Source: a virus
Taxonomy: Duplodnaviria; Heunggongvirae; Uroviricota; Caudoviricetes
Reading direction: 5' to 3' (one strand)
Virus record (IMG/VR): IMGVR_UViG_2585427657_000002
Length of the DNA: 44,098 nucleotides
In this document: positions 2,019-24,859 of the stretch, piece by piece
Layout of the letters: every line of letters begins with the position of its first letter
Position numbering within the stretch: position 1 is the stretch's first letter
Notes under the pieces: model-generated
Seen by the model: the letters and a program-made list of their open reading frames with translations, nothing else
The model's database searches: none
Told to the model about the DNA's origin: nothing
Position numbers and translations under genes: made by a program

Positions 2019-2043
2019 TACAGAGAGCAAAAGAGAAACGCCG

Positions 2044-2625: not shown

Positions 2626-2641
2626 TTAGCAAATGAATTTA

Positions 2642-3099: not shown

Positions 3100-3320
3100 T
3101 TAAATAGTACGATATGTACTTTACAAGATCAATACAATTTGTTGTAAGTTGGCGTGGTTTTTTATAACGCTTTGTATTTAATAGTGTTGTTTTTTAGCGT
3201 GGATGTATTGCCTCGGCGATGTAAGGAGAGATCAGAATTGCGTGGTTTAGTGGGTTGCATCTATTTATTTTTCAATAAATATAATTGGTTATGTGTTTTT
3301 AGGTGGGCGAACGTGAGGCA
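3100..3320 (-). promoter_or_regulatory. Putative pL / oL operator region, with nutL expected between it and N
   Basis: AT-rich intergenic block between the cI-operon terminator and N; contains TGTACTTTACAAG and TTACAA...TTGTAA motifs resembling motifs in the cI-cro intergenic region. Exact operators not resolved. Confidence 0.3.
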
Positions 3321-3324
3321 AAGA

Positions 3325-3348
3325 AAACCCGGCGCTGAGGCCGGGTTG
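3325..3348 (-). terminator. Intrinsic terminator ending the cI operon
   Basis: Minus-strand hairpin CCCGGCCTCAGCGCCGGG followed by TTTTCTTT, immediately after the stop of the 250-aa gene. Confidence 0.6.
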
Positions 3349-3350
3349 TA

Positions 3351-4103
3351 TTATGCTGCAAGTCTCTTAACCCAAGTCTCTCTTTTGGAGAATGGTAGAA
3401 CTTGGCTTGATTCATGGAAGAGTAAGGAGAGTTGTTGCATTTGATCACCAATTGCTTCGCTGTCTATAACAACAAATCTGTTGTTATACTCCTCACTTGA
3501 AGCTTTAAGATCAATTAGTTTCCCAAGCAATGAGTAAGCACTATTCCAGCTTCCTCCGTGTTTCACGCTTGATGTAAAAACGTATTTAGGTATGTCGGTT
3601 TTTATTGTTACAGGGACGGTAATTTGATGTCCACTCAAGCCATATACGTTTTCACGAAGAGAAAGTGCGTCTCTAAGCTCTGTGTGATATAGATAATCAA
3701 TAACCATACTTTCAAACTTTTCAGCTTGAACTGGCTGATACCAGTCTAACGACAAAGTTGATGCGAGTATACCAGCTCTAATTATGTTCGATGTAATCGC
3801 ACCGACATCCTTTTCTGTTGCCCAAGCAATGATTTCTCCTCGAGCATTGAGTTCTGCGCCTTCTTTAAGCAGTAATTGTCGTATCTCATCAAGTCGTTTT
3901 TTGGTAAGCGAGATCCCTCTTGCCTCCATATTCATTAAGGCATCGCATCTGTCACTAACTAAATACCTACCATTGACTTCACGGATAAAGGCACCGACAT
4001 GCTCTCCATCATCACAGTAAGTGAATGGACTGATAATTCTCAAGGTCTTGCCTATTGGATGGCATTCGAAACCTAGTTGTGAGATCACTGTTGAGCACAT
4101 CAT
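3351..4103 (-). CDS. Hypothetical protein (250 aa), distal gene of cI-linked two-gene operon
   Basis: ATG ATG start overlaps the stop of the upstream 185-aa gene by 4 nt; no transmembrane segment or motif I can assign; followed by terminator. Confidence 0.7.
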   Translation of the reverse strand: MMCSTVISQLGFECHPIGKTLRIISPFTYCDDGEHVGAFIREVNGRYLVSDRCDALMNMEARGISLTKKRLDEIRQLLLKEGAELNARGEIIAWATEKDVGAITSNIIRAGILASTLSLDWYQPVQAEKFESMVIDYLYHTELRDALSLRENVYGLSGHQITVPVTIKTDIPKYVFTSSVKHGGSWNSAYSLLGKLIDLKASSEEYNNRFVVIDSEAIGDQMQQLSLLFHESSQVLPFSKRETWVKRLAA

Positions 4104-4657
4104 ATTCCAAACCCCATTTGCCCCGACTCATCTTCAAGCGGTAAAGGTATTCTCCCAGAGTAAGTTATGTTCAGATGTTTACAGAAGTAATTCCAATACC
4201 CTACCAGGTCATCTGGGTTTATGTCATCTTCGATTGGAAACGCTATTCTATCACTATAGTATCCAGCTTCTTCATAGTATACATGGTAGTGAGCACCGTA
4301 AATGATATCTTGGTACTTCGGATGATCGACCTTGTAACTATTCGTGTGTTTGTCAAAGTGATAGGTATCTACCGCGAAAACCCTCTTGTTATGATAGAAA
4401 GCAATAATATTTATTTTAGGGTAAGAAATCGGGTCATCAGGTTCTGAATCCTGATCTGGTTTCCATTTCAGTTCAAACTTTAGCCCTTGTATAGGTATAC
4501 AATCCTCATCCAAGGGGATGATATGGGCTTGTAGCCACATATCAGAGCGACTTGGTTTCTGTTTCCATTTAACGCCAGAAAAGTTAACTATTTTTTTACA
4601 ATAAAGTACTTTATCAACTTCTACTTGGCTTGGCTGATAATCATCTATTTTTGCCAA
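4100..4657 (-). CDS. Hypothetical acidic Tyr/Asp-rich protein (185 aa), proximal gene of cI-linked operon
   Basis: ORF begins at a TTG codon 40 nt downstream of the cI stop (in-frame stop two codons upstream, so no longer extension is possible); only alternative start is an ATG at codon 40. Confidence 0.6.
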   Translation of the reverse strand: MAKIDDYQPSQVEVDKVLYCKKIVNFSGVKWKQKPSRSDMWLQAHIIPLDEDCIPIQGLKFELKWKPDQDSEPDDPISYPKINIIAFYHNKRVFAVDTYHFDKHTNSYKVDHPKYQDIIYGAHYHVYYEEAGYYSDRIAFPIEDDINPDDLVGYWNYFCKHLNITYSGRIPLPLEDESGQMGFGI

Positions 4658-4696
4658 TGTTTACCGCCCTGTAAATTGTAGATAAAAGTGGTTTCA

Positions 4697-5362
<666 letters not shown>

Positions 5363-5404
5363 GTCCTTATTATTACGCTCTGTACTGGAACCATCCATGC
5401 ACAA

Positions 5405-5474
5405 TGTGTATTTTTACTTGTATTCGCAAAGTACATATTGTATTTTTTTTATTCGTGTTTACTATGGAGGGCAT
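5405..5474. promoter_or_regulatory. Putative oR operators with divergent pRM / pR
   Basis: 70-bp AT-rich divergent intergenic region between cI and cro with repeated TGTA/TACA half-site-like motifs (e.g. CTTGTATTCGCAAAGTACA). Confidence 0.4.
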
Positions 5475-5690
5475 ATGAGCAACCTACGAAAATATCGAGA
5501 GTCACTGAATATCTCTCAAACAACACTTGCTAAGGCAGTTGGATGCACACAGGGAGCTATCGGACATTGGGAATCTGGTCGTCGCTTCCCAGACCTTAAA
5601 ACATGCCGTGCTCTTGTTGCGTGCCTAAACAAGTTAGGCGCAAAAGTCAGTCTTGATGACGTGTTCCCGCCGGAACACAAAGCCGCTTAA
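5475..5690 (+). CDS. cro: Cro-like HTH regulator (XRE family)
   Basis: 71 aa from ATG 5475 preceded by GGAGG; HTH segment ISQTTLAKAVGCTQGAIGHWESG; divergent from cI. Confidence 0.75.
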   Translation: MSNLRKYRESLNISQTTLAKAVGCTQGAIGHWESGRRFPDLKTCRALVACLNKLGAKVSLDDVFPPEHKAA

Positions 5691-5707
5691 TAAGCGGATC
5701 CGCTCTT

Positions 5708-5758
5708 TGTAACAACGGACATTCGTCCTACGTCGCTGAAAAGCGAGTTCCAAGATAT
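5708..5758 (+). promoter_or_regulatory. Candidate nutR / tR1 region
   Basis: boxA-like CGCTCTTTG at 5710..5718 and a short hairpin TCGCTGAAAAGCGA downstream; spacing is longer than in lambda nutR, so assignment is tentative. Confidence 0.3.
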
Positions 5759-5831
5759 CTGACCAACTAAGGCCATATGCGTTTCCACGCATACCTTTCA
5801 ACTAACTATTCACTATTGGAAATCTTAAGAA

Positions 5832-6128
5832 ATGGAAAGAACAAGTTACAGCAAACTATCACAGCGTGACGTTGATCGCGCAGAAACAGATTTACTTATC
5901 AATCTGTCAGCTATTACCCAGCGCGGTCTGGCAAAGATGATTGGCTGTCATGAATCGAAGATAAGCAGAACGGACTGGAGATTTATTGCTTCGGTCTTGT
6001 GTGCTTTCGGAATGGCATCAGACATCAGTCCGATTAGCAGGGCTTTTAAGTATGCGCTTGATGGACTCACCAATAAAAAACGCCCGGCGGCAACCGAGCG
6101 TTCTGAACAAATCCAGATGGAATTCTGA
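5832..6128 (+). CDS. cII: cII transcriptional activator
   Basis: C-terminus ...LTNKKRPAATERSEQIQMEF matches lambda cII as recalled; N-terminal two-thirds differ. Confidence 0.8.
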   Translation: MERTSYSKLSQRDVDRAETDLLINLSAITQRGLAKMIGCHESKISRTDWRFIASVLCAFGMASDISPISRAFKYALDGLTNKKRPAATERSEQIQMEF

Positions 6129-6160
6129 GGTCATTACTGGATCAATCCACAGGAGTCATT

Positions 6161-7060
6161 ATGACAAATACAGCAAAAATACTCAACTTCTGCAGAGGTA
6201 ACTTTGCCAAACAGGAGCGTAATGTGGCAGATCTCGATGATGGTTACGCCAGACTATCAAATATGCTGCTTGAGGCTTATTCAGGCGCAGATCTGACCAA
6301 GCGACAGTTTAAAGTGCTGCTTGCCATTCTGCGTAAAACCTATGGATGGAATAAACCAATGGACAGAATCACCGATTCTCAACTTAGCGAGATTACAAAG
6401 TTACCCGTCAAACGGTGCAATGAAGCCAAGTTAGAACTCGTCAGAATGAATATTATCAAGCAGCAAGGCGGCATGTTTGGACCAAATAAAAACATCTCAG
6501 AATGGTGTATCCCTCAAAACGAGGGAAAATCCCCTAAAACGAGGGATAAAACATCCCTCAAATTGGGGGATTGCTATCCCTCAAAACAGGGGGACACAAA
6601 AGACACTATTACAAAAGAAAAAAGAAAAGATTATTCGTCAGAGAATTCTGGCGAATCCTCTGACCAGCCAGAAAACGACCTTTCTGTGGTGAAACCGGAT
6701 GCTGCAATTCAGAGCGGCAGCAAGTGGGGGACAGCAGAAGACCTGACCGCCGCAGAATGGATGTTTGACATGGTGAAGACCATCGCGCCATCAGCCAGAA
6801 AACCGAATTTTGCAGGGTGGGCTAACGATATCCGCCTGATGCGTGAACGTGACGGACGTAACCATCGCGACATGTGTGTACTGTTCCGCTGGGCATGCCA
6901 GGACAACTTCTGGTCCGGTAACGTGCTGAGCCCGGCCAAACTCCGCGACAAGTGGACCCAGCTCGAAATCAACCGTAACAAGCAACAGGCAGGTGTGACA
7001 GCCTGCAAACCAAAACTCGACCTGACAAACACTGACTGGATTTACGGGGTGGATTTATGA
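6161..7060 (+). CDS. O: Replication initiator O
   Basis: Starts MTNTAKILNFCRGNFAKQERNVADLDDGYARLSNMLLEAYSGADLTKRQFKVLLAILRKTYGWNKP...; lambda O architecture with internal origin iterons. Confidence 0.95.
   Translation: MTNTAKILNFCRGNFAKQERNVADLDDGYARLSNMLLEAYSGADLTKRQFKVLLAILRKTYGWNKPMDRITDSQLSEITKLPVKRCNEAKLELVRMNIIKQQGGMFGPNKNISEWCIPQNEGKSPKTRDKTSLKLGDCYPSKQGDTKDTITKEKRKDYSSENSGESSDQPENDLSVVKPDAAIQSGSKWGTAEDLTAAEWMFDMVKTIAPSARKPNFAGWANDIRLMRERDGRNHRDMCVLFRWACQDNFWSGNVLSPAKLRDKWTQLEINRNKQQAGVTACKPKLDLTNTDWIYGVDL
6509..6640 (+). repeat. ori-lambda-type origin: four ~18-bp iterons plus A+T-rich region inside O
   Basis: Four repeats of the ATCCCTCAAAACGAGGGA type (6509..6594) followed by an AT-rich run (CACAAAAGACACTATTACAAAAGAAAAAAGAAAAG). 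Confidence 0.8.
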
Positions 7061-7758
7061 AAAACATCGCCGCACAGATGGTTAATTTTGACCGTGAGCA
7101 GATGCGTCGGATCGCCAACAACATGCCGGAACAGTACGACGAAAAGCCGCAGGTACAGCAGGTAGCGCAGATCATCAACGGTGTGTTCAGCCAGTTACTG
7201 GCAACTTTCCCGGCGAGTCTGGCTAACCGTGACCAGAACGAACTGAACGAAATCCGCCGCCAGTGGGTTCTGGCTTTCCGGGAAAACGGGATCACCACAA
7301 TGGAACAGGTTAACGCAGGAATGCGCGTAGCCCGTCGGCAGAATCGACCATTTCTGCCATCACCCGGGCAGTTTGTTGCATGGTGCCGGGAAGAAGCATC
7401 CGTTATCGCCGGACTGCCAAACGTCAGCGAGCTGGTTGATATGGTTTACGAGTATTGCCGGAAGCGAGGCCTGTATCCGGATGCAGAGTCTTATCCGTGG
7501 AAATCGAACGCGCACTACTGGCTGGTTACCAACCTGTACCAGAACATGCGGGCCAATGCGCTGACTGACGCGGAATTACGACGCAAGGCTGCCGATGAAC
7601 TGACCTGTATGACAGCGCGAATTAACCGTGGTGAGACGATACCTGAACCAGTAAAACAACTTCCTGTCATGGGCGGCAGACCTCTAAATCGTGTTCAGGC
7701 GCTGGCGAAGATCGCAGAAATTAAAGCTAAGTTAGGACTGAAAGGAGCAAGTGTATGA
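7057..7758 (+). CDS. P: Replication protein P (DnaB helicase loader)
   Basis: 233 aa, starts MKNIAAQMVNFDREQMRRIANNMPEQYDEKPQVQQVAQIINGVF...; overlaps O stop. Confidence 0.95.
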   Translation: MKNIAAQMVNFDREQMRRIANNMPEQYDEKPQVQQVAQIINGVFSQLLATFPASLANRDQNELNEIRRQWVLAFRENGITTMEQVNAGMRVARRQNRPFLPSPGQFVAWCREEASVIAGLPNVSELVDMVYEYCRKRGLYPDAESYPWKSNAHYWLVTNLYQNMRANALTDAELRRKAADELTCMTARINRGETIPEPVKQLPVMGGRPLNRVQALAKIAEIKAKLGLKGASV

Positions 7759-8045
7759 CGGGCAAAGAGGCAATTATTCATTACCTGGGGACGCATAATA
7801 GCTTCTGTGCGCCGGACGTTGCCGCGCTAACAGGCGCAACAGTAACCAGCATAAATCAGGCCGCGGCTAAAATGGCACGGGCAGGTCTTCTGGTTATCGA
7901 AGGTAAGGTCTGGCGAACGGTGTATTACCGGTTTGCTACCAAGGAAGAACGGGAAGGAAAGATGAGCACGAACCTGATTTTTAAGGAGTGTCGCCAGAGT
8001 GCCACGATGAAACGGATATTGGCGGTATATGGAGTTAAAAGATGA
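7755..8045 (+). CDS. ren: Ren
   Basis: 96 aa, starts MTGKEAIIHYLGTHNSFCAPDVAALTGATVTSINQAAAKMARAGLL...; overlaps P stop. Confidence 0.85.
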   Translation: MTGKEAIIHYLGTHNSFCAPDVAALTGATVTSINQAAAKMARAGLLVIEGKVWRTVYYRFATKEEREGKMSTNLIFKECRQSATMKRILAVYGVKR

Positions 8046-8070
8046 CCATCTACATCACTGAGCTAATAAC

Positions 8071-8108
8071 AGGCCTGCAGGTCAGGTAATCGCAGGCCTT
8101 TTTATTTG
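8071..8108 (+). terminator. Intrinsic terminator (tR2 position)
   Basis: Hairpin AGGCCTGC...GCAGGCCT followed by TTTTTATTT between ren and ninB. Confidence 0.6.
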
Positions 8109-10968: not shown

Positions 10969-12051
10969 TTAGAACTGATAAACCAGACCTACAGCGACGA
11001 TGTCGTCGGTATCAATACCAGCTGTTTTGGTAAACTTACTATCGTCAATTAAGTTGATTTTGTAATCAACAAAAGTGGACATGTTTTTATTAAAGTAGTA
11101 AGTAGCACCGACATCGACATACTTGACTAAGTCTCGGTCACCATGAACACCAAGGTCTTTACCTTTTGACTGAAGGTAAGCAACAGATGGACGCAGACCG
11201 AAGTCAAACTGATATTGTGCTACTGCTTCAAAGTTTTGTGCTTTGTTTGCAATATGGTTATTACCAAAAACGGTCATATTCTGAGTTTCAGAATATGTGG
11301 TAGCCAGATAGATATTGTTCGCATCATATTTCAGGCCTGCAGCCCATACTTCCGCATTTTTGCCGGAGGCATTGAATTTGCTCTTACCATAGGCGACCTG
11401 ACCGTCAGTGCGATCTGATTTAGCATAGGTTGCACCCACGCCGAATCCTTCATACTCATAAGTAGTGGAGAAACCGAAACCATCACCATTGGCTTCAGTT
11501 ACGTCAGTGCGGTCATTTTTACCCTGATACTGAGCAGCAAAGTTCAGGCCATCGACCAGACCAAAGAAGTCGTTGTTACGATAAGTTGCAACACCAGTAG
11601 TGCGACCAGTCATGAACACATCTGTTTGGGTCCAGGTATCACCACCGAATTCTGGCAGAACGTCAGTCCACGCACCGATGTCGTATGCTACACCGTAGTT
11701 ACGGCCGTAATCGATTGAGCCGTAATCACCAAATTTCAGGCCTGCAAATGCAAGACGGGTTTTGTCTTTGGAAGAACCTTGAGATTCAGCACGGTTGCCT
11801 TTGAATTCATATTCCCACTGACCGAAACCAGTCAGTTGATCGTTGATTTGGGTTTCACCTTTGAAGCCAAGACGGGCATAAGTAGTATCACCATCATCTG
11901 CATCATTAGAGGAGAAGTAGTGCTTGGCATTAACTTTCCCGTATAGATCCAGCTTGTTACTGTCTTTATTATAAATTTCAGCTGCCTGAGCAGACATCGC
12001 CATCAGTACTGATGCAGCTACAGCAGAAATTGCCACTGTTAATTTTTTCAT
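10969..12051 (-). CDS. nmpC: Outer-membrane general porin, phage-encoded OmpC-family (NmpC/Lc type)
   Basis: Signal peptide [23 protein letters not shown] then AEIYNKD...; C-terminal ...VAVGLVYQF; opposite orientation to phage late genes. Start taken as ATG 12051, not the longer ORF-track start. Confidence 0.9.
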
Positions 12052-12477
12052 TGTACGCCCTTTTTTTGAACTTTTATTAAAAAATGATGTCACTGCGCGA
12101 TAAATATTCATCTAATCAATGTGATTATTTCAAGATGTAAGTTTTAGTTTCTCATTTAATTTGTGAAGTAGATCTCTATTTTTATCTGAACCTTTTCTAT
12201 CTAATCCTATTCATGGCTCTTGTCTGAACAAAAATAAATCTATTAGCTAATTTATATTAATGGCACTTATTTATAAGTGCTCTATAATTCTTTAGCTTAA
12301 TTTAAACAAACTAAAAATAACATCGGAAATTATTAACTGGTTATTTGTTGAAGTTTTCTTATGCATTTGTGGTGGTGTTTTGAACACTCGGTGGCATTCT
12401 CACAAATATCATTTAGTAGTTTACGTACGTAAAAAATTGGTTATGCTGTTAAGAGTGGTTACTTCGTCACACAGCTT

Positions 12478-12510
12478 AAACCCGCCGTCGAGCGGGTTTT
12501 TCCATTTTTT
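12478..12510 (+). terminator. Intrinsic terminator upstream of the lysis cassette (candidate tR')
   Basis: Hairpin CCCGC-CGTCGA-GCGGG followed by TTTTTCCATTTTTT, about 130 bp before the holin start. Confidence 0.55.
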
Positions 12511-12639
12511 GAGTCTCGATATTAGCTGATAACCCAATACCTGAGTTATTCACTGACTCCGAATCTGTTACGTTTCTGCCTTTATTGCGATACGTAGTAT
12601 CCCCTTAATTTACACCCGCTTTGTCTGCGAGGTGGGGTT

Positions 12640-12855
12640 ATGAAATCCATGGATAAGTTAACAACGGGTGTCGCCTATGGTACCTCAGCAGGTAGTGCCG
12701 GGTACTGGTTTTTACAGTTGCTCGATAAAGTCACGCCCTCACAGTGGGCGGCAATAGGTGTGCTGGGTAGCCTGGTATTTGGCCTGCTGACGTACCTGAC
12801 AAACCTTTATTTCAAGATTAAAGAAGATAAGCGCAAGGCTGCGAGAGGTGAATAA
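12640..12855 (+). CDS. S: Holin, phage-21 pinholin type
   Basis: 71 aa, [71 protein letters not shown]; two TM segments, dual-start motif MKSM. Confidence 0.9.
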
Positions 12856-13352
12856 TGCCTCCATCATTACGAAAAGCCGTTGCTGCTGCTATTGGTGGCG
12901 GAGCAATTGCTATAGCATCAGTGTTAATCACTGGCCCAAGTGGTAACGATGGTCTGGAAGGTGTCAGCTACATACCATACAAAGATATTGTTGGTGTATG
13001 GACTGTATGTCACGGGCATACAGGAAAAGACATCATGCTCGGTAAAACGTATACCAAAGCAGAATGCAAAGCCCTCCTGAATAAAGACCTTGCCACGGTC
13101 GCCAGACAAATTAACCCGTACATCAAAGTCGATATACCGGAAACAATGCGCGGCGCTCTTTACTCATTCGTTTACAACGTGGGTGCTGGCAATTTCAGAA
13201 CATCGACGCTTCTTCGCAAAATAAACCAGGGCGATATCAAAGGCGCATGTGATCAGCTACGTCGCTGGACATATGCTGGCGGTAAGCAATGGAAAGGTCT
13301 CATGACTCGTCGTGAGATTGAGCGTGAAATCTGTTTGTGGGGTCAGCAATGA
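12855..13352 (+). CDS. R: SAR endolysin (lysozyme with signal-anchor-release N-terminus)
   Basis: 165 aa; N-terminal weakly hydrophobic SAR segment [20 protein letters not shown] followed by lysozyme domain; overlaps holin stop. Confidence 0.9.
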
Positions 13353-13810
13353 ACAGAGTAACCGCGATTATCTCCGCTCTGGTTATCTGCATCATCGTCT
13401 GCCTGTCATGGGCTGTTAATCATTACCGTGATAACGCCATTACCTACAAAGCCCAGCGCGACAAAAATGCCAGAGAACTGACGCTGGCGAACGCGGCAAT
13501 TACTGACATACAGATGCGTCAGCGTGATGTTGCTGCGCTCGATGCAAAATACACGAAGGAGTTAGCTGATGCGAAAGCTGAAAATGATGCTCTGCGTGAT
13601 GATGTTGCCGCTGGTCGTCGTCGGTTGCACATCAAAGCAGTCTGTCAGTCAGTGCGTGAAGCCACCACCGCCTCCGGCGTGGATAATGCAGCCTCCCCCC
13701 GACTGGCAGACACCGCTGAACGGGATTATTTCACCCTCAGAGAGAGGCTGATCACTATGCAAAAACAACTGGAAGGAACCCAGAAGTATATTAATGAGCA
13801 GTGCAGATAG
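13349..13810 (+). CDS. Rz: Rz i-spanin
   Basis: 153 aa, [38 protein letters not shown]...; N-terminal TM then coiled-coil; ATGA overlap with R. Confidence 0.9.
13569..13751 (+). CDS. Rz1: Rz1 o-spanin lipoprotein, embedded in the +1 frame of Rz
   Basis: [20 protein letters not shown]... lipobox, proline-rich mature part; entirely nested within Rz. Confidence 0.85.
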
Positions 13811-13841
13811 AGCTGCCCATATCGATGGGCAACTCATGCAA

Positions 13842-14135
13842 TTATTGTGAGCAATACACACGCGCTTCCAGCGGAGTATAAATGCCTAAAGTAATAAAAC
13901 CGAGCAATCCATTTACGAATGTTTGCTGGGTTTCTGTTTTAACAACATTTTCTGCACCACCACAAATTTTTGCTGCATCGACAGTTTTCTTCTGCCCAAT
14001 TCCCGAAACGAAGAAATGATGGGTGATGGTTTCCTTTGGTGTTACTGCTGTAGGTTTGTTTCCAACAGTAAACGTCTGTTGAGCACATCCTGTAATAAGC
14101 ATTGCCAGAGCGGCAGAAAACAACATTTTTTTCAT
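13842..14135 (-). CDS. bor: Bor lipoprotein (serum-resistance moron)
   Basis: 97 aa from MKKMLFSAALAMLITGCAQQTFTV... (lipobox LITGC). Confidence 0.9.
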   Translation of the reverse strand: MKKMLFSAALAMLITGCAQQTFTVGNKPTAVTPKETITHHFFVSGIGQKKTVDAAKICGGAENVVKTETQQTFVNGLLGFITLGIYTPLEARVYCSQ

Positions 14136-14615
14136 CTTATTATCCTGCATTGTTAAAAACGGCAGAATCCTATGTGACAACAATTAAACGATAGTTAAAT
14201 GGATTGATGAAAATTAAAACTACACAGGTGGGCTCAGACTATTGGAGGAAGTTGGGGACACTCAGAATCCTGTGGAATGAAATAAACCGGTCTATCCGTC
14301 CATTACCCTTTTAGCTGCGCTGTATCGTCGCCGTATTCCCGCATTAACCATGACCGTAGCCCGACGGGGAATTCCTTCTGCGTGAGTGTGCGGGAATAAT
14401 TAAAAACGATGCACACCGGGTTTTTACCGCGTTAATGATTCGCGGGTTTATCCCGGTGCGATGGTGGAAGAAACAGGAAGCTGTATTACAGAAAGTGCTA
14501 CTACTGTATCCCGATGCGATGTATGTAATGTGAGTCAGATAATGGCACAGGATGTGGTGATGTGGCAGTCTGGAACACAGGATATATTGTCAGAATAAGA
14601 CCCGTAGGAATAAAA

Positions 14616-14942
14616 ATGAAAAGACGCCTTTTACTACTTTTTCTGTTATCTGTCCTGGCAGTGGGATGCTCGCAGCAAAAAGCTGATGAGCCCCGGCAAT
14701 TAGTGACGGTGTATCCACGATATCCGGAATATGCTGCAGCAAATTATATCAAGGGGCTGGTTGAGGTTAAGTTCGATATTGGTGCTGATGGGACTGTGAC
14801 ACGGATCGTTTTTCTCCGCTCAGAGCCTCATAATTTGTTTCGTGATGAAGTGGTGAAGGCCATGGCGAAATGGCGATTTGAAAAGAATCGCCCCTGTCAG
14901 GGAGTGAAGAGACAATTTATCTTTACGCCGTCACGTCCTTGA
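14616..14942 (+). CDS. Lipoprotein with TonB C-terminal-like domain (moron)
   Basis: MKRRLLLLFLLSVLAVGCSQQ signal/lipobox, then VYPRYPEYAAANYIKGLVEVKFDIGADGTVTRIVFLRSEPHNLFRDEVVKAMAKWRFE, which matches the TonB_C pattern (YP..A...G.V.V.F.I..DG.V..I.......F...V..A...WR). Confidence 0.7.
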   Translation: MKRRLLLLFLLSVLAVGCSQQKADEPRQLVTVYPRYPEYAAANYIKGLVEVKFDIGADGTVTRIVFLRSEPHNLFRDEVVKAMAKWRFEKNRPCQGVKRQFIFTPSRP

Positions 14943-15064
14943 TGCTTCCAGGTAGAGAGGGGCTGGAAGCAGGAGAAAAATGAAAGAGCCAGCGGTTATA
15001 TTTTTGTCATGGCTGACGAGGAATGATGGAAGAAGGCGTTGTATGCCACACAACGCCTCACTGT

Positions 15065-15418
15065 TCATTTCTTCTTTTTCTCTGGTGGAACCCGATGAAT
15101 AAGAGTTGCACTGGTTTCCGATGAGATGGCGATATACTCGGGCAAAGTATGCTGGCAGTTTTCCAACTGGTCAAAAATACCTGCTCTCGTCTGTTGCAAT
15201 GCCTGCAGCATGCGGCGGCAATGCGCCTTGCTTTTACTAACCATCTTTCCTTCCTCTATCAGTCGCTGCGTGAACTCATCATGGAATACCAGGTAAATGC
15301 GGATGTTATCGGTTTTGGCTACGCAGCATAGTACAAAACGGACAGGTGCATCCCGGGACGGGGGAGGCGTCACATGTCCCTGTGATGGTTGTTCCGGGTA
15401 ATGTACTGTGTGGGGCAT
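15065..15418 (-). CDS. Hypothetical ORF (117 aa), coding status uncertain
   Basis: Open frame only; overlaps the small secretory ORF 15306..15557 and a + strand 60-aa ORF; identical copy at 19418..19771. Confidence 0.25.
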   Translation of the reverse strand: MPHTVHYPEQPSQGHVTPPPSRDAPVRFVLCCVAKTDNIRIYLVFHDEFTQRLIEEGKMVSKSKAHCRRMLQALQQTRAGIFDQLENCQHTLPEYIAISSETSATLIHRVPPEKKKK

Positions 15419-15557
15419 AAAAATGTCCGATAATTTTACTTTCTACCGCAGTTAGTTGATTCGTTGGTCCTGGTAGCACATTGGGCGAGGATTTAAATGC
15501 CAGGCAACTGAAGGATGATGTCGCAAGGGAGATAGCGAGAATATTTCTGATTTTCAT
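15306..15557 (-). CDS. Small predicted secreted Cys-rich protein (83 aa)
   Basis: MKIRNILAISLATSSFSCLA-FKSS signal peptide; mature part has four Cys (C..C.C..C near the C-terminus); identical copy at 19659..19910. Confidence 0.3.
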   Translation of the reverse strand: MKIRNILAISLATSSFSCLAFKSSPNVLPGPTNQLTAVESKIIGHFYAPHSTLPGTTITGTCDASPVPGCTCPFCTMLRSQNR

Positions 15558-15705
15558 TTGATGATGCCTCTGTGTGAAATGACGGTAAACGACGCACTTG
15601 TGCCGGCACATAATAGCAAGCACCATAATAGATCAGATTCGATTCTTGCTGTAAGTGATAATTATTCTCGTTTTCGGGTCCTTTCCGTCGATCCAACAGG
15701 TTACG

Positions 15706-15717
15706 GGGCGGCGACCT
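15706..15717 (+). other. cos: cosN cohesive-end site GGGCGGCGACCT (copy 1)
   Basis: ...ATCCAACAGGTTACG|GGGCGGCGACCT|CGCGG... matches the lambda right-end/left-end junction as recalled; cosB-like inverted GTCCGACATGAAAG / CATGTCGGGC elements lie between it and Nu1. Confidence 0.85.
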
Positions 15718-15893
15718 CGCGGTTTTTCACTATTTATGAAAATTTTTCAGGGAAAATCGTGTCGGTACTTCTCGAATATAACTTTTTGTTTTTTTTAATA
15801 TTGCATCCGTAAAGGTCCGACATGAAAGTGTCCGAAAATGCCTTTTTCTGGCGTTTTCATGTCGGGCCTTGTATTTGATAATGGGTTGTTTTC

Positions 15894-16158
15894 ATGAAGG
15901 TTAATAAAAAGAGGCTTGCCGAAATTTTCAACGTGGACCCGCGGACGATTGAACGCTGGCAGTCTCAGGGACTCCCTTGCGCCTCCAAAGGTAGTAAGGG
16001 CATTGAATCTGTATTTGATACTGCCATGGCAATTCAGTGGTATGCGCAGAGGGAAACTGATATCGAAAACGAAAAGCTCCGCAAAGAACTGGACGATTTG
16101 CGTGCGGCAGCGGAGTCAGATTTACAACCCGGCACCATTGACTATGAACGCTACCGGC
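15894..16158 (+). pseudogene. nu1: Terminase small subunit Nu1, 5' copy truncated after codon ~88 by a rearrangement junction
   Basis: [33 protein letters not shown]...TIDYERYR then sequence switches to the reverse complement of the porin upstream region. Confidence 0.7.
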
Positions 16159-16323
16159 ACATCTTGAAATAATCACATTGATTAGATGAATATTTATCGC
16201 GCAGTGACATCATTTTTTAATAAAAGTTCAAAAAAAGGGCGTACAATGAAAAAATTAACAGTGGCAATTTCTGCTGTAGCTGCATCAGTACTGATGGCGA
16301 TGTCTGCTCAGGCAGCTGAAATT
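16159..16323. repeat. Fold-back arm: reverse complement of 11974..12138 forming a perfect palindrome with 16327..16491
   Basis: 16159..16323 reads as the exact reverse complement of the porin 5' end and upstream region; symmetry centre at about 16325 (GCTGAAATT-ATA-AATTTCAGC). Confidence 0.85.
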
Positions 16324-16830
16324 ATAAATTTCAGCTGCCTGAGCAGACATCGCCATCAGTACTGATGCAGCTACAGCAGAAATTGCCACTGTTAATTTTT
16401 TCATTGTACGCCCTTTTTTTGAACTTTTATTAAAAAATGATGTCACTGCGCGATAAATATTCATCTAATCAATGTGATTATTTCAAGATGTAAGTTTTAG
16501 TTTCTCATTTAATTTGTGAAGTAGATCTCTATTTTTATCTGAACCTTTTCTATCTAATCCTATTCATGGCTCTTGTCTGAACAAAAATAAATCTATTAGC
16601 TAATTTATATTAATGGCACTTATTTATAAGTGCTCTATAATTCTTTAGCTTAATTTAAACAAACTAAAAATAACATCGGAAATTATTAACTGGTTATTTG
16701 TTGAAGTTTTCTTATGCATTTGTGGTGGTGTTTTGAACACTCGGTGGCATTCTCACAAATATCATTTAGTAGTTTACGTACGTAAAAAATTGGTTATGCT
16801 GTTAAGAGTGGTTACTTCGTCACACAGCTT

Positions 16831-16863
16831 AAACCCGCCGTCGAGCGGGTTTTTCCATTTTTT
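16831..16863 (+). terminator. Duplicate of terminator 12478..12510
   Basis: Identical sequence at offset +4353. Confidence 0.5.
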
Positions 16864-16992
16864 GAGTCTCGATATTAGCTGATAACCCAATACCTGAGTT
16901 ATTCACTGACTCCGAATCTGTTACGTTTCTGCCTTTATTGCGATACGTAGTATCCCCTTAATTTACACCCGCTTTGTCTGCGAGGTGGGGTT

Positions 16993-17208
16993 ATGAAATC
17001 CATGGATAAGTTAACAACGGGTGTCGCCTATGGTACCTCAGCAGGTAGTGCCGGGTACTGGTTTTTACAGTTGCTCGATAAAGTCACGCCCTCACAGTGG
17101 GCGGCAATAGGTGTGCTGGGTAGCCTGGTATTTGGCCTGCTGACGTACCTGACAAACCTTTATTTCAAGATTAAAGAAGATAAGCGCAAGGCTGCGAGAG
17201 GTGAATAA
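16993..17208 (+). CDS. S: Holin (duplicate copy)
   Basis: Identical to 12640..12855. Confidence 0.85.
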
Positions 17209-17705
17209 TGCCTCCATCATTACGAAAAGCCGTTGCTGCTGCTATTGGTGGCGGAGCAATTGCTATAGCATCAGTGTTAATCACTGGCCCAAGTGGTAAC
17301 GATGGTCTGGAAGGTGTCAGCTACATACCATACAAAGATATTGTTGGTGTATGGACTGTATGTCACGGGCATACAGGAAAAGACATCATGCTCGGTAAAA
17401 CGTATACCAAAGCAGAATGCAAAGCCCTCCTGAATAAAGACCTTGCCACGGTCGCCAGACAAATTAACCCGTACATCAAAGTCGATATACCGGAAACAAT
17501 GCGCGGCGCTCTTTACTCATTCGTTTACAACGTGGGTGCTGGCAATTTCAGAACATCGACGCTTCTTCGCAAAATAAACCAGGGCGATATCAAAGGCGCA
17601 TGTGATCAGCTACGTCGCTGGACATATGCTGGCGGTAAGCAATGGAAAGGTCTCATGACTCGTCGTGAGATTGAGCGTGAAATCTGTTTGTGGGGTCAGC
17701 AATGA
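17208..17705 (+). CDS. R: SAR endolysin (duplicate copy)
   Basis: Identical to 12855..13352. Confidence 0.85.
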
Positions 17706-18163
17706 ACAGAGTAACCGCGATTATCTCCGCTCTGGTTATCTGCATCATCGTCTGCCTGTCATGGGCTGTTAATCATTACCGTGATAACGCCATTACCTAC
17801 AAAGCCCAGCGCGACAAAAATGCCAGAGAACTGACGCTGGCGAACGCGGCAATTACTGACATACAGATGCGTCAGCGTGATGTTGCTGCGCTCGATGCAA
17901 AATACACGAAGGAGTTAGCTGATGCGAAAGCTGAAAATGATGCTCTGCGTGATGATGTTGCCGCTGGTCGTCGTCGGTTGCACATCAAAGCAGTCTGTCA
18001 GTCAGTGCGTGAAGCCACCACCGCCTCCGGCGTGGATAATGCAGCCTCCCCCCGACTGGCAGACACCGCTGAACGGGATTATTTCACCCTCAGAGAGAGG
18101 CTGATCACTATGCAAAAACAACTGGAAGGAACCCAGAAGTATATTAATGAGCAGTGCAGATAG
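17702..18163 (+). CDS. Rz: Rz i-spanin (duplicate copy)
   Basis: Identical to 13349..13810. Confidence 0.85.
17922..18104 (+). CDS. Rz1: Rz1 o-spanin (duplicate copy)
   Basis: Identical to 13569..13751. Confidence 0.8.
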
Positions 18164-18194
18164 AGCTGCCCATATCGATGGGCAACTCATGCAA

Positions 18195-18488
18195 TTATTG
18201 TGAGCAATACACACGCGCTTCCAGCGGAGTATAAATGCCTAAAGTAATAAAACCGAGCAATCCATTTACGAATGTTTGCTGGGTTTCTGTTTTAACAACA
18301 TTTTCTGCACCACCACAAATTTTTGCTGCATCGACAGTTTTCTTCTGCCCAATTCCCGAAACGAAGAAATGATGGGTGATGGTTTCCTTTGGTGTTACTG
18401 CTGTAGGTTTGTTTCCAACAGTAAACGTCTGTTGAGCACATCCTGTAATAAGCATTGCCAGAGCGGCAGAAAACAACATTTTTTTCAT
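18195..18488 (-). CDS. bor: Bor lipoprotein (duplicate copy)
   Basis: Identical to 13842..14135. Confidence 0.85.
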   Translation of the reverse strand: MKKMLFSAALAMLITGCAQQTFTVGNKPTAVTPKETITHHFFVSGIGQKKTVDAAKICGGAENVVKTETQQTFVNGLLGFITLGIYTPLEARVYCSQ

Positions 18489-18968
18489 CTTATTATCCTG
18501 CATTGTTAAAAACGGCAGAATCCTATGTGACAACAATTAAACGATAGTTAAATGGATTGATGAAAATTAAAACTACACAGGTGGGCTCAGACTATTGGAG
18601 GAAGTTGGGGACACTCAGAATCCTGTGGAATGAAATAAACCGGTCTATCCGTCCATTACCCTTTTAGCTGCGCTGTATCGTCGCCGTATTCCCGCATTAA
18701 CCATGACCGTAGCCCGACGGGGAATTCCTTCTGCGTGAGTGTGCGGGAATAATTAAAAACGATGCACACCGGGTTTTTACCGCGTTAATGATTCGCGGGT
18801 TTATCCCGGTGCGATGGTGGAAGAAACAGGAAGCTGTATTACAGAAAGTGCTACTACTGTATCCCGATGCGATGTATGTAATGTGAGTCAGATAATGGCA
18901 CAGGATGTGGTGATGTGGCAGTCTGGAACACAGGATATATTGTCAGAATAAGACCCGTAGGAATAAAA

Positions 18969-19295
18969 ATGAAAAGACGCCTTTTACTACTTTTTCTGTT
19001 ATCTGTCCTGGCAGTGGGATGCTCGCAGCAAAAAGCTGATGAGCCCCGGCAATTAGTGACGGTGTATCCACGATATCCGGAATATGCTGCAGCAAATTAT
19101 ATCAAGGGGCTGGTTGAGGTTAAGTTCGATATTGGTGCTGATGGGACTGTGACACGGATCGTTTTTCTCCGCTCAGAGCCTCATAATTTGTTTCGTGATG
19201 AAGTGGTGAAGGCCATGGCGAAATGGCGATTTGAAAAGAATCGCCCCTGTCAGGGAGTGAAGAGACAATTTATCTTTACGCCGTCACGTCCTTGA
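18969..19295 (+). CDS. TonB-C-like lipoprotein (duplicate copy)
   Basis: Identical to 14616..14942. Confidence 0.65.
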   Translation: MKRRLLLLFLLSVLAVGCSQQKADEPRQLVTVYPRYPEYAAANYIKGLVEVKFDIGADGTVTRIVFLRSEPHNLFRDEVVKAMAKWRFEKNRPCQGVKRQFIFTPSRP

Positions 19296-20058
19296 TGCTT
19301 CCAGGTAGAGAGGGGCTGGAAGCAGGAGAAAAATGAAAGAGCCAGCGGTTATATTTTTGTCATGGCTGACGAGGAATGATGGAAGAAGGCGTTGTATGCC
19401 ACACAACGCCTCACTGTTCATTTCTTCTTTTTCTCTGGTGGAACCCGATGAATAAGAGTTGCACTGGTTTCCGATGAGATGGCGATATACTCGGGCAAAG
19501 TATGCTGGCAGTTTTCCAACTGGTCAAAAATACCTGCTCTCGTCTGTTGCAATGCCTGCAGCATGCGGCGGCAATGCGCCTTGCTTTTACTAACCATCTT
19601 TCCTTCCTCTATCAGTCGCTGCGTGAACTCATCATGGAATACCAGGTAAATGCGGATGTTATCGGTTTTGGCTACGCAGCATAGTACAAAACGGACAGGT
19701 GCATCCCGGGACGGGGGAGGCGTCACATGTCCCTGTGATGGTTGTTCCGGGTAATGTACTGTGTGGGGCATAAAAATGTCCGATAATTTTACTTTCTACC
19801 GCAGTTAGTTGATTCGTTGGTCCTGGTAGCACATTGGGCGAGGATTTAAATGCCAGGCAACTGAAGGATGATGTCGCAAGGGAGATAGCGAGAATATTTC
19901 TGATTTTCATTTGATGATGCCTCTGTGTGAAATGACGGTAAACGACGCACTTGTGCCGGCACATAATAGCAAGCACCATAATAGATCAGATTCGATTCTT
20001 GCTGTAAGTGATAATTATTCTCGTTTTCGGGTCCTTTCCGTCGATCCAACAGGTTACG

Positions 20059-20070
20059 GGGCGGCGACCT
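20059..20070 (+). other. cos: cosN (copy 2)
   Basis: Identical to 15706..15717 with the same flanks. Confidence 0.8.
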
Positions 20071-20246
20071 CGCGGTTTTTCACTATTTATGAAAATTTTT
20101 CAGGGAAAATCGTGTCGGTACTTCTCGAATATAACTTTTTGTTTTTTTTAATATTGCATCCGTAAAGGTCCGACATGAAAGTGTCCGAAAATGCCTTTTT
20201 CTGGCGTTTTCATGTCGGGCCTTGTATTTGATAATGGGTTGTTTTC

Positions 20247-20795
20247 ATGAAGGTTAATAAAAAGAGGCTTGCCGAAATTTTCAACGTGGACCCGCGGACG
20301 ATTGAACGCTGGCAGTCTCAGGGACTCCCTTGCGCCTCCAAAGGTAGTAAGGGCATTGAATCTGTATTTGATACTGCCATGGCAATTCAGTGGTATGCGC
20401 AGAGGGAAACTGATATCGAAAACGAAAAGCTCCGCAAAGAACTGGACGATTTGCGTGCGGCAGCGGAGTCAGATTTACAACCCGGCACCATTGACTATGA
20501 ACGCTACCGGCTCACAAAAGCGCAGGCAGATGCGCAGGAACTGAAAAATGCCCGTGAAGACGGAGTAGTGCTGGAAACTGAACTGTTTACCTTCATTCTG
20601 CAACGTGTGGCACAGGAGATTTCGGGGATACTTGTGCGTGTGCCGTTGACATTACAGCGTAAATATCCGGACATTTCACCATCACACCTTGATGTGGTGA
20701 AAACTGAAATCGCGAAAGCCTCCAATGTTGCAGCTAAGGCCGGTGAAAACGTGGGCGGGTGGATCGATGATTTCAGACGCGCAGAAGGCAGCTAA
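20247..20795 (+). CDS. nu1: Terminase small subunit Nu1 (full length, in duplicated copy B)
   Basis: 182 aa; ...[54 protein letters not shown]...; winged-helix N-terminus. Confidence 0.85.
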
Positions 20796-21358
20796 TGCAG
20801 CCGGTGCGATAGCTACAGGGCTTTTATCTCTCATTATTCCTGTTCCACTGACGACAGTTCAGTGGGCCAATAAACATTATTACCTTCCTAAAGAGTCGTC
20901 TTATACCCCGGGGCGATGGGAAACACTGCCGTTTCAGGTTGGCATCATGAACTGTATGGGCAACGATCTGATTCGCACGGTTAACCTGATTAAATCTGCC
21001 CGTGTTGGTTATACAAAGATGTTGCTGGGAGTGGAGGCTTATTTTATTGAGCATAAATCACGCAACAGCCTTCTTTTTCAGCCCACGGACTCAGCTGCTG
21101 AAGATTTTATGAAATCTCATGTTGAGCCAACGATAAGGGATGTTCCTGCATTGCTGGAGCTGGCTCCATGGTTCGGAAGAAAACACCGCGATAATACGCT
21201 CACCCTGAAGCGTTTTTCCTCCGGTGTGGGGTTCTGGTGTCTGGGTGGTGCGGCAGCAAAAAACTACCGTGAAAAATCCGTGGATGTGGTCTGTTATGAC
21301 GAGCTTTCCTCGTTCGAACCGGATGTTGAAAAAGAGGGTTCGCCAACCCTGCTGGGGG
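20725..21358 (+). pseudogene. A: Terminase large subunit A, 5' fragment ending at a rearrangement junction
   Basis: Identical to the first ~210 codons of 22889..24859, then joins sequence equivalent to 15426 onward (...PTLLG then GTCCGATAATTTTAC...). Confidence 0.7.
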
Positions 21359-21638
21359 TCCGATAATTTTACTTTCTACCGCAGTTAGTTGATTCGTTGG
21401 TCCTGGTAGCACATTGGGCGAGGATTTAAATGCCAGGCAACTGAAGGATGATGTCGCAAGGGAGATAGCGAGAATATTTCTGATTTTCATTTGATGATGC
21501 CTCTGTGTGAAATGACGGTAAACGACGCACTTGTGCCGGCACATAATAGCAAGCACCATAATAGATCAGATTCGATTCTTGCTGTAAGTGATAATTATTC
21601 TCGTTTTCGGGTCCTTTCCGTCGATCCAACAGGTTACG

Positions 21639-21650
21639 GGGCGGCGACCT
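21639..21650 (+). other. cos: cosN (copy 3)
   Basis: Identical 12-mer and flanks. Confidence 0.8.
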
Positions 21651-21826
21651 CGCGGTTTTTCACTATTTATGAAAATTTTTCAGGGAAAATCGTGTCGGTA
21701 CTTCTCGAATATAACTTTTTGTTTTTTTTAATATTGCATCCGTAAAGGTCCGACATGAAAGTGTCCGAAAATGCCTTTTTCTGGCGTTTTCATGTCGGGC
21801 CTTGTATTTGATAATGGGTTGTTTTC

Positions 21827-22092
21827 ATGAAGGTTAATAAAAAGAGGCTTGCCGAAATTTTCAACGTGGACCCGCGGACGATTGAACGCTGGCAGTCTCA
21901 GGGACTCCCTTGCGCCTCCAAAGGTAGTAAGGGCATTGAATCTGTATTTGATACTGCCATGGCAATTCAGTGGTATGCGCAGAGGGAAACTGATATCGAA
22001 AACGAAAAGCTCCGCAAAGAACTGGACGATTTGCGTGCGGCAGCGGAGTCAGATTTACAACCCGGCACCATTGACTATGAACGCTACCGGCT
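21827..22092 (+). pseudogene. nu1: Nu1 5' fragment (third copy), truncated after codon ~88
   Basis: ...TIDYERYRL then joins sequence equivalent to 15576 onward. Confidence 0.7.
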
Positions 22093-22222
22093 GAAATGAC
22101 GGTAAACGACGCACTTGTGCCGGCACATAATAGCAAGCACCATAATAGATCAGATTCGATTCTTGCTGTAAGTGATAATTATTCTCGTTTTCGGGTCCTT
22201 TCCGTCGATCCAACAGGTTACG

Positions 22223-22234
22223 GGGCGGCGACCT
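22223..22234 (+). other. cos: cosN (copy 4, the one contiguous with the intact packaging/head operon)
   Basis: Identical 12-mer and flanks, about 190 bp upstream of the intact Nu1 at 22411. Confidence 0.85.
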
Positions 22235-22410
22235 CGCGGTTTTTCACTATTTATGAAAATTTTTCAGGGAAAATCGTGTCGGTACTTCTCGAATATAACT
22301 TTTTGTTTTTTTTAATATTGCATCCGTAAAGGTCCGACATGAAAGTGTCCGAAAATGCCTTTTTCTGGCGTTTTCATGTCGGGCCTTGTATTTGATAATG
22401 GGTTGTTTTC

Positions 22411-22959
22411 ATGAAGGTTAATAAAAAGAGGCTTGCCGAAATTTTCAACGTGGACCCGCGGACGATTGAACGCTGGCAGTCTCAGGGACTCCCTTGCGCC
22501 TCCAAAGGTAGTAAGGGCATTGAATCTGTATTTGATACTGCCATGGCAATTCAGTGGTATGCGCAGAGGGAAACTGATATCGAAAACGAAAAGCTCCGCA
22601 AAGAACTGGACGATTTGCGTGCGGCAGCGGAGTCAGATTTACAACCCGGCACCATTGACTATGAACGCTACCGGCTCACAAAAGCGCAGGCAGATGCGCA
22701 GGAACTGAAAAATGCCCGTGAAGACGGAGTAGTGCTGGAAACTGAACTGTTTACCTTCATTCTGCAACGTGTGGCACAGGAGATTTCGGGGATACTTGTG
22801 CGTGTGCCGTTGACATTACAGCGTAAATATCCGGACATTTCACCATCACACCTTGATGTGGTGAAAACTGAAATCGCGAAAGCCTCCAATGTTGCAGCTA
22901 AGGCCGGTGAAAACGTGGGCGGGTGGATCGATGATTTCAGACGCGCAGAAGGCAGCTAA
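22411..22959 (+). CDS. nu1: Terminase small subunit Nu1
   Basis: 182 aa, identical to 20247..20795; followed by overlapping terminase A. Confidence 0.9.
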
Positions 22960-24859
22960 TGCAGCCGGTGCGATAGCTACAGGGCTTTTATCTCTCATTA
23001 TTCCTGTTCCACTGACGACAGTTCAGTGGGCCAATAAACATTATTACCTTCCTAAAGAGTCGTCTTATACCCCGGGGCGATGGGAAACACTGCCGTTTCA
23101 GGTTGGCATCATGAACTGTATGGGCAACGATCTGATTCGCACGGTTAACCTGATTAAATCTGCCCGTGTTGGTTATACAAAGATGTTGCTGGGAGTGGAG
23201 GCTTATTTTATTGAGCATAAATCACGCAACAGCCTTCTTTTTCAGCCCACGGACTCAGCTGCTGAAGATTTTATGAAATCTCATGTTGAGCCAACGATAA
23301 GGGATGTTCCTGCATTGCTGGAGCTGGCTCCATGGTTCGGAAGAAAACACCGCGATAATACGCTCACCCTGAAGCGTTTTTCCTCCGGTGTGGGGTTCTG
23401 GTGTCTGGGTGGTGCGGCAGCAAAAAACTACCGTGAAAAATCCGTGGATGTGGTCTGTTATGACGAGCTTTCCTCGTTCGAACCGGATGTTGAAAAAGAG
23501 GGTTCGCCAACCCTGCTGGGGGATAAACGTATTGAGGGCTCTGTATGGCCAAAATCCATTCGCGGCTCGACGCCTAAAATCAAAGGCTCCTGCCAGATCG
23601 AAAAAGCCGCTAACGAGTCGGCACACTTCATGCGTTTTTATGTGCCCTGTCCGCACTGTGGGGAGGAGCAGTATCTGAAATTTGGCGATGATGCCTCGCC
23701 TTTCGGTCTTAAGTGGGAGAAGAATAAGCCAGAAAGTGTTTTCTACCTTTGTGAGCATCATGGCTGTGTGATCCATCAGTCTGAGCTTGACCAGAGTAAC
23801 GGGCGGTGGATCTGTGAAAACACGGGCATGTGGACCCGTGACGGCCTGATGTTTTTCAGCGCCCGGGGTGATGAAATTCCGCCGCCGCGCTCCATCACTT
23901 TCCATATCTGGACGGCGTACAGTCCGTTCACCACCTGGGTACAGATTGTCTATGACTGGCTGGATGCACTGAAAGATCCCAACGGCCTGAAAACCTTTGT
24001 GAACACCACGCTGGGCGAGACCTGGGAAGAGGCTGTGGGCGAAAAACTCGATCACCAGGTGCTGATGGATAAGGTTGTGCGTTACACGGCGGCGGTGCCT
24101 GCCCGGGTGGTTTATCTGACGGCGGGCATTGACTCGCAGCGAAACCGTTTTGAGATGTATGTCTGGGGATGGGCTCCGGGAGAGGAAGCCTTTCTGGTGG
24201 ATAAAATCATCATTATGGGGCGTCCCGATGAGGAAGAGACGCTGTTACGTGTGGATGCGGCGATCAACAAAAAATACCGCCATGCAGACGGAACCGAAAT
24301 GACCATTTCCCGTGTCTGCTGGGACATCGGGGGGATCGATGGCGAAATCGTTTATCAGAGGTCAAAAAAACACGGTGTTTTCCGGGTGCTGCCGGTAAAA
24401 GGCGCGTCTGTCTATGGCAAGCCGGTGATCACCATGCCGAAAACCCGCAATCAGCGGGGCGTTTATCTGTGTGAAGTGGGGACGGACACCGCAAAAGAAA
24501 TTCTCTATGCCCGTATGAAAGCCGAGCCCACGCCTGCGGATGAAGCCACGTCGTATGCCATCCGTTTTCCTGATGATCCGGAGATTTTTTCGCAGACAGA
24601 GGCGCAGCAACTGGTCGCGGAAGAGCTTGTGGAGAAGTGGGAAAAAGGAAAGATGCGTCTGCTGTGGGATAACAAAAAGCGGCGTAACGAAGCGCTGGAC
24701 TGCCTGGTGTATGCCTACGCGGCATTACGTGTGTCCGTGCAACGCTGGCAGCTTGATCTGGCTGTACTGGCAAAATCCCGGGAAGAAGAGACGACCCGGC
24801 CAACCCTTAAAGAACTGGCAGCGAAGCTGTCCGGAGGAGTGAATGGTTACAGTCGCTGA
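22889..24859 (+). CDS. A: Terminase large subunit A
   Basis: ...[32 protein letters not shown]...[14 protein letters not shown]...[19 protein letters not shown]... lambda gpA pattern; start could alternatively be the ATG at 22931 (MISDAQ...). Confidence 0.9.

Follow-up and report, generated by a model that had tools for sequence, protein, structure and literature searches.

A perfect 333-bp palindrome in a record of the lambdoid prophage of Escherichia coli Nissle 1917 is probably an assembly or library artefact

Can a long perfect palindrome stand in the chromosome of a wild-type enteric bacterium, or does it belong only to the record in which it is found? The question is raised by a 44,098-nt stretch of DNA deposited as a Caudoviricetes genome (IMGVR_UViG_2585427657_000002), referred to here in its full length as the window. 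Judged by its sequence, the window is the lambdoid prophage located at icd of E. coli Nissle 1917. This prophage is common to CFT073, ATCC 25922 and other ST73-type strains, and the window spans it from a truncated integrase gene, interrupted by ISEc52, to the last prophage gene. At the normal locus, the late region is present in a single copy and comprises the porin, the lysis genes, iss/bor, cos and terminase. Both the Nissle genome CP022686.1 and CFT073 carry this region once, colinear and in normal order, and a published gene list of Nissle prophage 3 contains the porin, holin, Rz, Bor, terminase small-subunit and terminase large-subunit genes once each (Bury et al., PMC5987069 Table S2). 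At the left end of the window (1-1664; L001 8388-10051), the integrase gene is cut by ISEc52 and the early-left region of CFT073, with exo, bet, gam, kil and cIII, is absent. The cut integrase and the missing early-left region fit the reported non-inducibility of Nissle prophage 3 (PMC5987069). Within the late region, the window departs from the normal locus in a set of duplications, at the boundary of which the palindrome is found. The sequence comparisons described below suggest that the palindrome and the surrounding duplications are probably, with a rough probability of 0.85, an assembly or library artefact and not a feature of the Nissle chromosome.

A repeat search of the window placed the arms of the palindrome at 16159-16323 and 16327-16491. 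Each arm is 165 nt long, the two are 100% complementary and 3 nt apart, and the total length is 333 bp. In the raw letters, the centre reads ...GCTGAAATT ATA AATTTCAGC..., with ATA at 16324-16326 and its T at 16325. A preliminary description had reported perfect 165-bp arms and an ATA turnaround at about 16325, and both statements proved exact to the base. When folded as a single strand, the palindrome forms one unbroken hairpin of -208 kcal/mol, compared with -38.8 +/- 4.0 kcal/mol in shuffled sequences (z = -42), which excludes chance as its origin. The left arm (16159..16323, + strand) is the exact reverse complement, at 100% identity, of 11974-12138. The right arm (16327..16491, + strand) is the beginning of the second copy of a direct duplication, and the parental copy of the arm (11974..12138) lies within the first. 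Self-BLAST showed this duplication to be 4,191 bp long with 100% identity (11968-16158 = 16321-20511), and its limits place the palindrome at the duplication boundary, where it had also been put before.

Which genes does the palindrome touch? Its arms derive from the first 26 codons of the prophage porin gene and the 87 nt upstream of it. The full-length gene (10969..12051, - strand) encodes a porin of the OmpC/NmpC family and is annotated as porin OmpC at L001 19002-20084 of CP022686.1. In the left arm, the porin promoter region and the first 26 codons now lie on the + strand. The extra porin 5' fragment claimed at 16246..16323 on the + strand was recovered by translation, with an ATG at 16246 followed by 26 porin codons (the signal peptide plus AEI) that reach 16323. 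The same frame reads across the palindrome centre to a stop, giving a chimeric ORF of 39 aa (16246..16365, + strand). The first copy of the direct repeat (11968..16158, + strand) contains, according to the CP022686.1 annotation, the porin 5' end, the lysis genes, iss/bor and cos, and it ends 265 nt into the gene for the small subunit of terminase (Nu1). The truncated Nu1 copy at its end had been described as fused to the reverse complement of 11974..12138. This fusion is confirmed by the 100% match of the arm and by a junction at 16158/16159; by translation, the truncated copy (15894..16172, + strand) is a chimeric ORF of 92 aa made of 88 native codons up to 16158 and 4 codons from the inverted arm.

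The fold-back is one of four junctions that self-BLAST revealed around cos: J1 at 16158/16159, J2 (the fold-back) centred at 16325, J3 at 21358 and J4 at 22092. The last two were not among the features listed earlier. With r as the coordinate in the unduplicated sequence, the window runs up to r16158, continues with the reverse complement of r12138-r11974, then with r11971-r17005, then with r15425-r16158/9, and finally with r15575 onward. At J1 (16158..16159), r16158 meets the reverse complement of r12138 bluntly, and comparison with both parents shows 0 nt of homology. J2 coincides with the central ATA (16324..16326), as seen from the raw sequence, the repeat search and the comparison with the parental sequences; bases 16321-16323 fit the inverted arm as well as the direct copy, which amounts to 3 nt of microhomology (ATT/AAT in the parent). 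The junction homology at J1, J2, J3 and J4 is 0, 3, 1 and 1 nt, respectively.

The segments between these junctions were delimited by self-BLAST and by comparison with CP022686.1. The third segment, S3 (16321..21358, + strand; r11968-r17005), consists of the second direct-repeat copy and its continuation, and carries a full Nu1 gene (20247-20795) followed by a truncated terminase large-subunit gene (20767-21358). The fourth, S4 (21358..22092, + strand; r15425-r16159, 735 nt), is bounded by J3 and J4 with 1 nt shared at each. It lies entirely inside S3 in parental terms and contains cos and a third, truncated Nu1 copy (21827-22091). The fifth, S5, begins at 22092 and continues from r15575 onward; the fourth cos lies in its beginning (22092..24859, + strand), along with complete genes for Nu1 (22411-22959) and for the terminase large subunit (22931-24859). 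Every repeated copy is 100% identical to its counterparts. All of the junctions jump backwards and the segment starts rise monotonically (before r1, r11971, r15425, r15575), such that each segment overlaps its predecessor and starts further right. The left arm and S3 together measure exactly 5,200 nt (16159-21358). In r coordinates, S5 starts exactly 150 nt after S4. These two round figures may be fingerprints of a pipeline or may be coincidence.

The repeated segments have cos in common. An exact DNA search for the cosN cohesive-end sequence GGGCGGCGACCT returned four matches on the + strand of the window (15706..15717, 20059-20070, 21639-21650 and 22223-22234; 0.21 expected by chance), one per repeated segment. 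The copies are direct, are accompanied by their flanking sequence and lie at intervals of 4,353, 1,580 and 584 nt. Real copies would offer terminase several close cut sites in the chromosome. As a separate observation, about 57-60 nt between cosN and the Nu1 start codon (15814-15873) match other lambdoid prophages in inverted orientation at 90-93% identity. A further regularity is that r16158 is the last base of parental sequence before J1 and before J4 (...GAACGCTACCGGC; window positions 16158 and 22091/22092); this base lies 265 nt into Nu1 and 452 nt to the right of cosN. At r16158, no repeat boundary, cos cleavage site or other sequence motif was found that would account for the shared breakpoint.

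Two accounts of the breakpoints were considered in this connection. The first holds that they are repeat boundaries. The 584-bp block r15575-16158 does occur in three places in Nissle, and the next 847 bp in only one. Paralog homology in other genomes stops at r16199-16225, which is 40-70 nt beyond r16158, and in three paralog types no exact block of at least 20 nt ends at r16158, r15575 or r15425; Nissle's own paralogous copies were not found in four 50-kb stretches of its genome. Repeat boundaries are unsupported as an explanation, given where the homology ends and that no such block ends at the breakpoints. The second account, that the breakpoints are cos cleavage sites, was rejected: cosN is at r15706-15717 and no junction falls there.

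Are the junctions found in any other genome? A 751-nt query across J1 and J2 was covered to 80% by none of 5,426 complete E. coli genomes, and in the same search 394 records carried the component sequence of J1/J2 at 99% identity or more. The J1/J2 query was absent from 50,697 phage records. Exact patterns for J1 and for the palindrome centre had no match in IMG/VR, in GTDB representative genomes or in JGI metagenome contigs, and J1/J2 had no junction-spanning match in the other assemblies searched, many Nissle-lineage genomes among them. The best of the matches listed for the J3/J4 query were all split into three pieces on the normal locus, which is 1,581 bp long. A public gene-call collection had no record of four window-specific ORF products (the chimeras at J1, J3 and J4 and a fragment of cI). 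The length of the window is accounted for exactly by the Nissle reference plus additions: the 37,227 bp of the CP022686.1 prophage, 6,517 bp of the cos block, 342 bp of two insertion sequence (IS) tails and 12 bp of small insertions sum to 44,098. To the right of the last junction, 22092-44098 is 100% identical to CP022686.1.

The IS tails and small insertions bear on the quality of the record as a whole. Within 5104-5443, the window contains six C's and one T that CP022686.1 lacks. In alignment, these extra bases coincide exactly with the spurious N's or extra bases of the 2002 genome of CFT073 (NC_004431.1), whose N contexts in cI are CTCNATATT, GGCCNGATG and TATTNCGCC. At the true SNP columns of the cI-region alignment, the window has the Nissle alleles. 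The cI-type repressor of the LexA family, intact in CP022686.1, is split by the extra bases into three minus-strand ORFs (4697-5107, 4995-5213 and 5201-5404). Window positions 2019-8082 align with the 2002 CFT073 sequence with zero gaps. In CFT073, an IS3-family element lies between ren and ninB with CAGGT on both sides; at 8078-8087 (CAGGTCAGGT), the window has both CAGGT target-site copies and lacks the element, and CAGGT is present only once in real Nissle. The last 171 nt of the CFT073 element, comprising the transposase 3' end and the terminal repeat, are inserted twice in the window (1664-1834 and 1848-2018), 13 nt and 1 nt from the ISEc52 tip, where they form a 173-nt direct repeat with a spacing of 184 nt. 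This two-tail structure (1664-2018) was matched to 80% in none of the 5,426 complete genomes, and the 171-nt tail was not found in about 240 kb of sampled Nissle sequence.

The record is thus patched from a reference, and the templating, as far as the alignments reveal it, covers only part of it. The second poor stretch of the 2002 CFT073 sequence, in a tail gene with several indels and one N, is represented in the window by the correct Nissle sequence (31484-31728, compared with L004 34006-34247). Taken together, the CFT073-type errors and the correct Nissle stretches identify the record as a mosaic of reference-templated and independent sequence and as a low-quality assembly. The CFT073-derived errors are confined to 1664-8087, away from the junctions, some of them within a few kb of the palindrome. 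From 8082 on, CFT073 and Nissle are too alike to tell which template was used.

How could such a record have come to contain a palindrome? The junctions themselves most likely originated in library preparation or assembly. Four overlapping stretches would have been laid end to end in reference order with their overlaps unmerged: S1 up to r16158, S2 plus S3 (the 165-nt fold-back followed by r11971-r17005), S4 (r15425-r16159) and S5 from r15575. The second stretch would open with a 165-nt fold-back of its own end. Snap-back priming at the 3-bp inverted repeat ATT-ATA-AAT could have given rise to this fold-back, either in a chimeric read or at the hairpin end of a contig; a fold-back read, a hairpin at a contig end and some other pipeline error fit equally well. 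A size that suggests reads is shared by the 165-nt arm, the 171-nt IS tails and the 150-nt offset of S5 from S4. The shared r16158 breakpoint of J1 and J4 is unaccounted for by simple concatenation of contigs.

Fold-back and palindromic chimeras are documented library artefacts, known as fold-back reads and hairpin contig ends (Heinz, Meyerson and Li 2026, PMC12870357), from Pacasus (PMC6218980) and as end-repair microhomology chimeras (PMC8674242). The window resembles them in its perfect symmetry, its tiny centre and a microhomology of a few bases. It also resembles them in its short, read-like arm (165 nt), which opens a block whose remainder agrees with the reference, and in being known from one record only. 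It differs in that the fold-back is fixed in the consensus and that the centre holds no adapter remnant. A missed SMRTbell or other adapter was itself considered as a source and rejected as visible evidence, the centre consisting of parental bases only. The preliminary description had already named an artefact as the leading explanation, and this assessment is strengthened by the lack of junction matches elsewhere, the CFT073 errors in the record, the junction homology of 0-3 nt and the contig-like order of the segments.

The size of the palindrome matters to whether a cell could keep it. E. coli cells that are rec+ tolerate a chromosomal palindrome of 246 bp with 24 bp of spacer (PMC4245961). 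A perfect palindrome of 460 bp is cut by SbcCD on both sister chromosomes, which kills even rec+ cells (PMC4245961). By analogy, a 333-bp palindrome with a 3-nt centre would be unstable at best in a wild-type strain. The earlier statement that such a palindrome is unstable in enteric bacteria agrees with the lethality of the 460-bp perfect palindrome in sbcCD+ rec+ E. coli (PMC4245961). The palindromes engineered in the Leach laboratory (246-bp interrupted, 460-bp perfect and 480-bp interrupted; PMC4245961, PMC3315005) are comparable to that of the window as long inverted repeats of the E. coli chromosome that form a hairpin on replication and are substrates of SbcCD, and 333 bp lies between the tolerated and the lethal sizes. 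They differ in being purpose-built, in that the perfect one was kept only without SbcCD, and in their spacers of 20-24 bp compared with a centre of 3 nt. The palindrome of the window would, in addition, have to persist in a wild-type, sbcCD+ probiotic strain.

The alternative that survives best is a real chromosomal rearrangement in the sequenced clone, of the type called tandem inversion duplication (TID), and it is unlikely. TIDs of Salmonella and E. coli are the subject of a paper by Kugelberg et al. (2010, Genetics 185:65; cited in PMC4689423). The known examples reportedly came from selection for gene dosage and, for the most part, no longer had a perfect palindromic junction. Under such a scheme, the strand would snap back at ATT-ATA-AAT within the porin gene and turn round again on the right-hand side of cos, producing three copies in a direct-inverted-direct arrangement. 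The inverted copy would then be trimmed to 165 nt by a deletion that starts at r16158 and reaches into it, capping the arms at 165 nt and explaining the blunt J1, and two further small tandem duplications would arise around cos. The trigger could be breaks made by terminase in a prophage that does not excise. The order of direct, short inverted and direct copies does have the look of a remodelled TID. Like the TIDs of Salmonella and E. coli, the window may be read as combining this order with one junction at a short quasi-palindrome and with an asymmetric other junction, as would be left when a deletion remodels a symmetric precursor. Unlike them, it retains a perfect junction with 165-bp arms, has a parental stem of only 3 bp and contains two extra tandem junctions.

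Several details of the sequence can be read in favour of this scheme. J2 has a 3-bp inverted microhomology with a 3-nt loop, cos is present in every duplicated segment, three junction positions lie within 1.3 kb of cosN, and a preference for breaking at r16158 could underlie its use by both J1 and J4. ISEc52 interrupts the integrase gene, and the prophage has been reported to be non-inducible (PMC5987069). Inverted duplications primed by hairpins form in E. coli, though they were seen in sbcCD recA mutants (PMC3315005). Since rec+ E. coli can live with interrupted palindromes of about 246 bp (PMC4245961), arms of 165 bp are not strictly impossible. Against the scheme, no other Nissle-lineage or E. 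coli genome searched has a junction-spanning match, and at least four independent illegitimate events would be needed within 10 kb, with 0-3 nt of homology. In a wild-type host, SbcCD should attack the near-perfect 333-bp palindrome, several errors in the same record are proven to be non-biological, and no selection for extra copies of these genes is evident. The copy pattern consists of two direct 4,191-bp copies that flank a 165-nt inverted piece, and its fit to a TID requires that a large deletion be assumed. The parental sequence at J2 offers a 3-bp stem with a 3-nt loop centred at r11972; a better stem of 5 bp (TTTAT-T-ATAAA, centred at r11970) was left unused. J1 is without an inverted motif.

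Inverted triplications of eukaryotes (ODIRA and DUP-TRP/INV-DUP; PMC4689423) offer a more distant likeness. They too have interstitial inverted copies formed at short inverted repeats, one arm of which is later deleted. They differ in being eukaryotic, tens of kb long, origin-dependent and verified by snap-back assays. A more specific form of the chromosomal account, which must be considered improbable, would be that in one stock of Nissle 1917 a break near cos, possibly made by the prophage's own terminase, was repaired by snap-back and template switching into a remodelled TID with four cos sites, and that the 333-bp palindrome was kept in an sbcCD+ wild-type chromosome. If true, this would be a rare case in nature: wild-type E. 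coli would have kept a long palindrome that is nearly perfect, and a prophage cos site would be the centre of a complex rearrangement.

Could the junctions instead belong to real molecules that were never part of the chromosome? Minority molecules might have been threaded into the chromosome by the assembler. They could be rearranged cos DNA from abortive replication or packaging of the defective prophage, or products of rearrangement in vitro by whole-genome amplification or end-repair snap-back. The extra segments are all centred on cos; amplification and end repair typically give rise to artefactual chimeras that fold back or are short-range and show little microhomology (PMC6218980, PMC8674242); and the 165-nt arm, the 171-nt IS tails and the 150-nt offset would suit molecules of read size as well. 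Set against these points, no breakpoint is at the cosN nick sites and the prophage was reported not to be inducible (PMC5987069). This origin is very improbable. It also overlaps with the artefact explanation, and under it, too, the structure stays outside the chromosome.

Nissle 1917 is a common chassis for engineering and its lambdoid prophage a known target of modification, and the duplicated blocks of 584-735 bp match the size of homology arms, as might be left by homology-arm integration in a deliberately engineered derivative; yet no vector, marker or scar separates the duplicated blocks, the native prophage accounts for every base of 11968-23522, such a design would not include a palindrome on purpose, and this origin is effectively refuted by the composition of the junctions, which contain no sequence from outside the prophage. 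An engineering scar was rejected likewise, no foreign DNA being present at the junctions.

To conclude, the probable origin of the palindrome in library preparation or assembly has consequences for how this record can be used. Read in this way, the record carries about 6.9 kb of spurious sequence in one prophage, and the main value of the finding is as a quality flag. The spurious content would comprise the multiplication of cos to four sites, the duplicated lysis and iss/bor genes, the extra truncated terminase genes, the broken cI and the stray IS tails. Analyses of prophages, gene content or structural variants that use the record would be misled. Nissle 1917 is a widely engineered probiotic chassis, and such errors can therefore spread.
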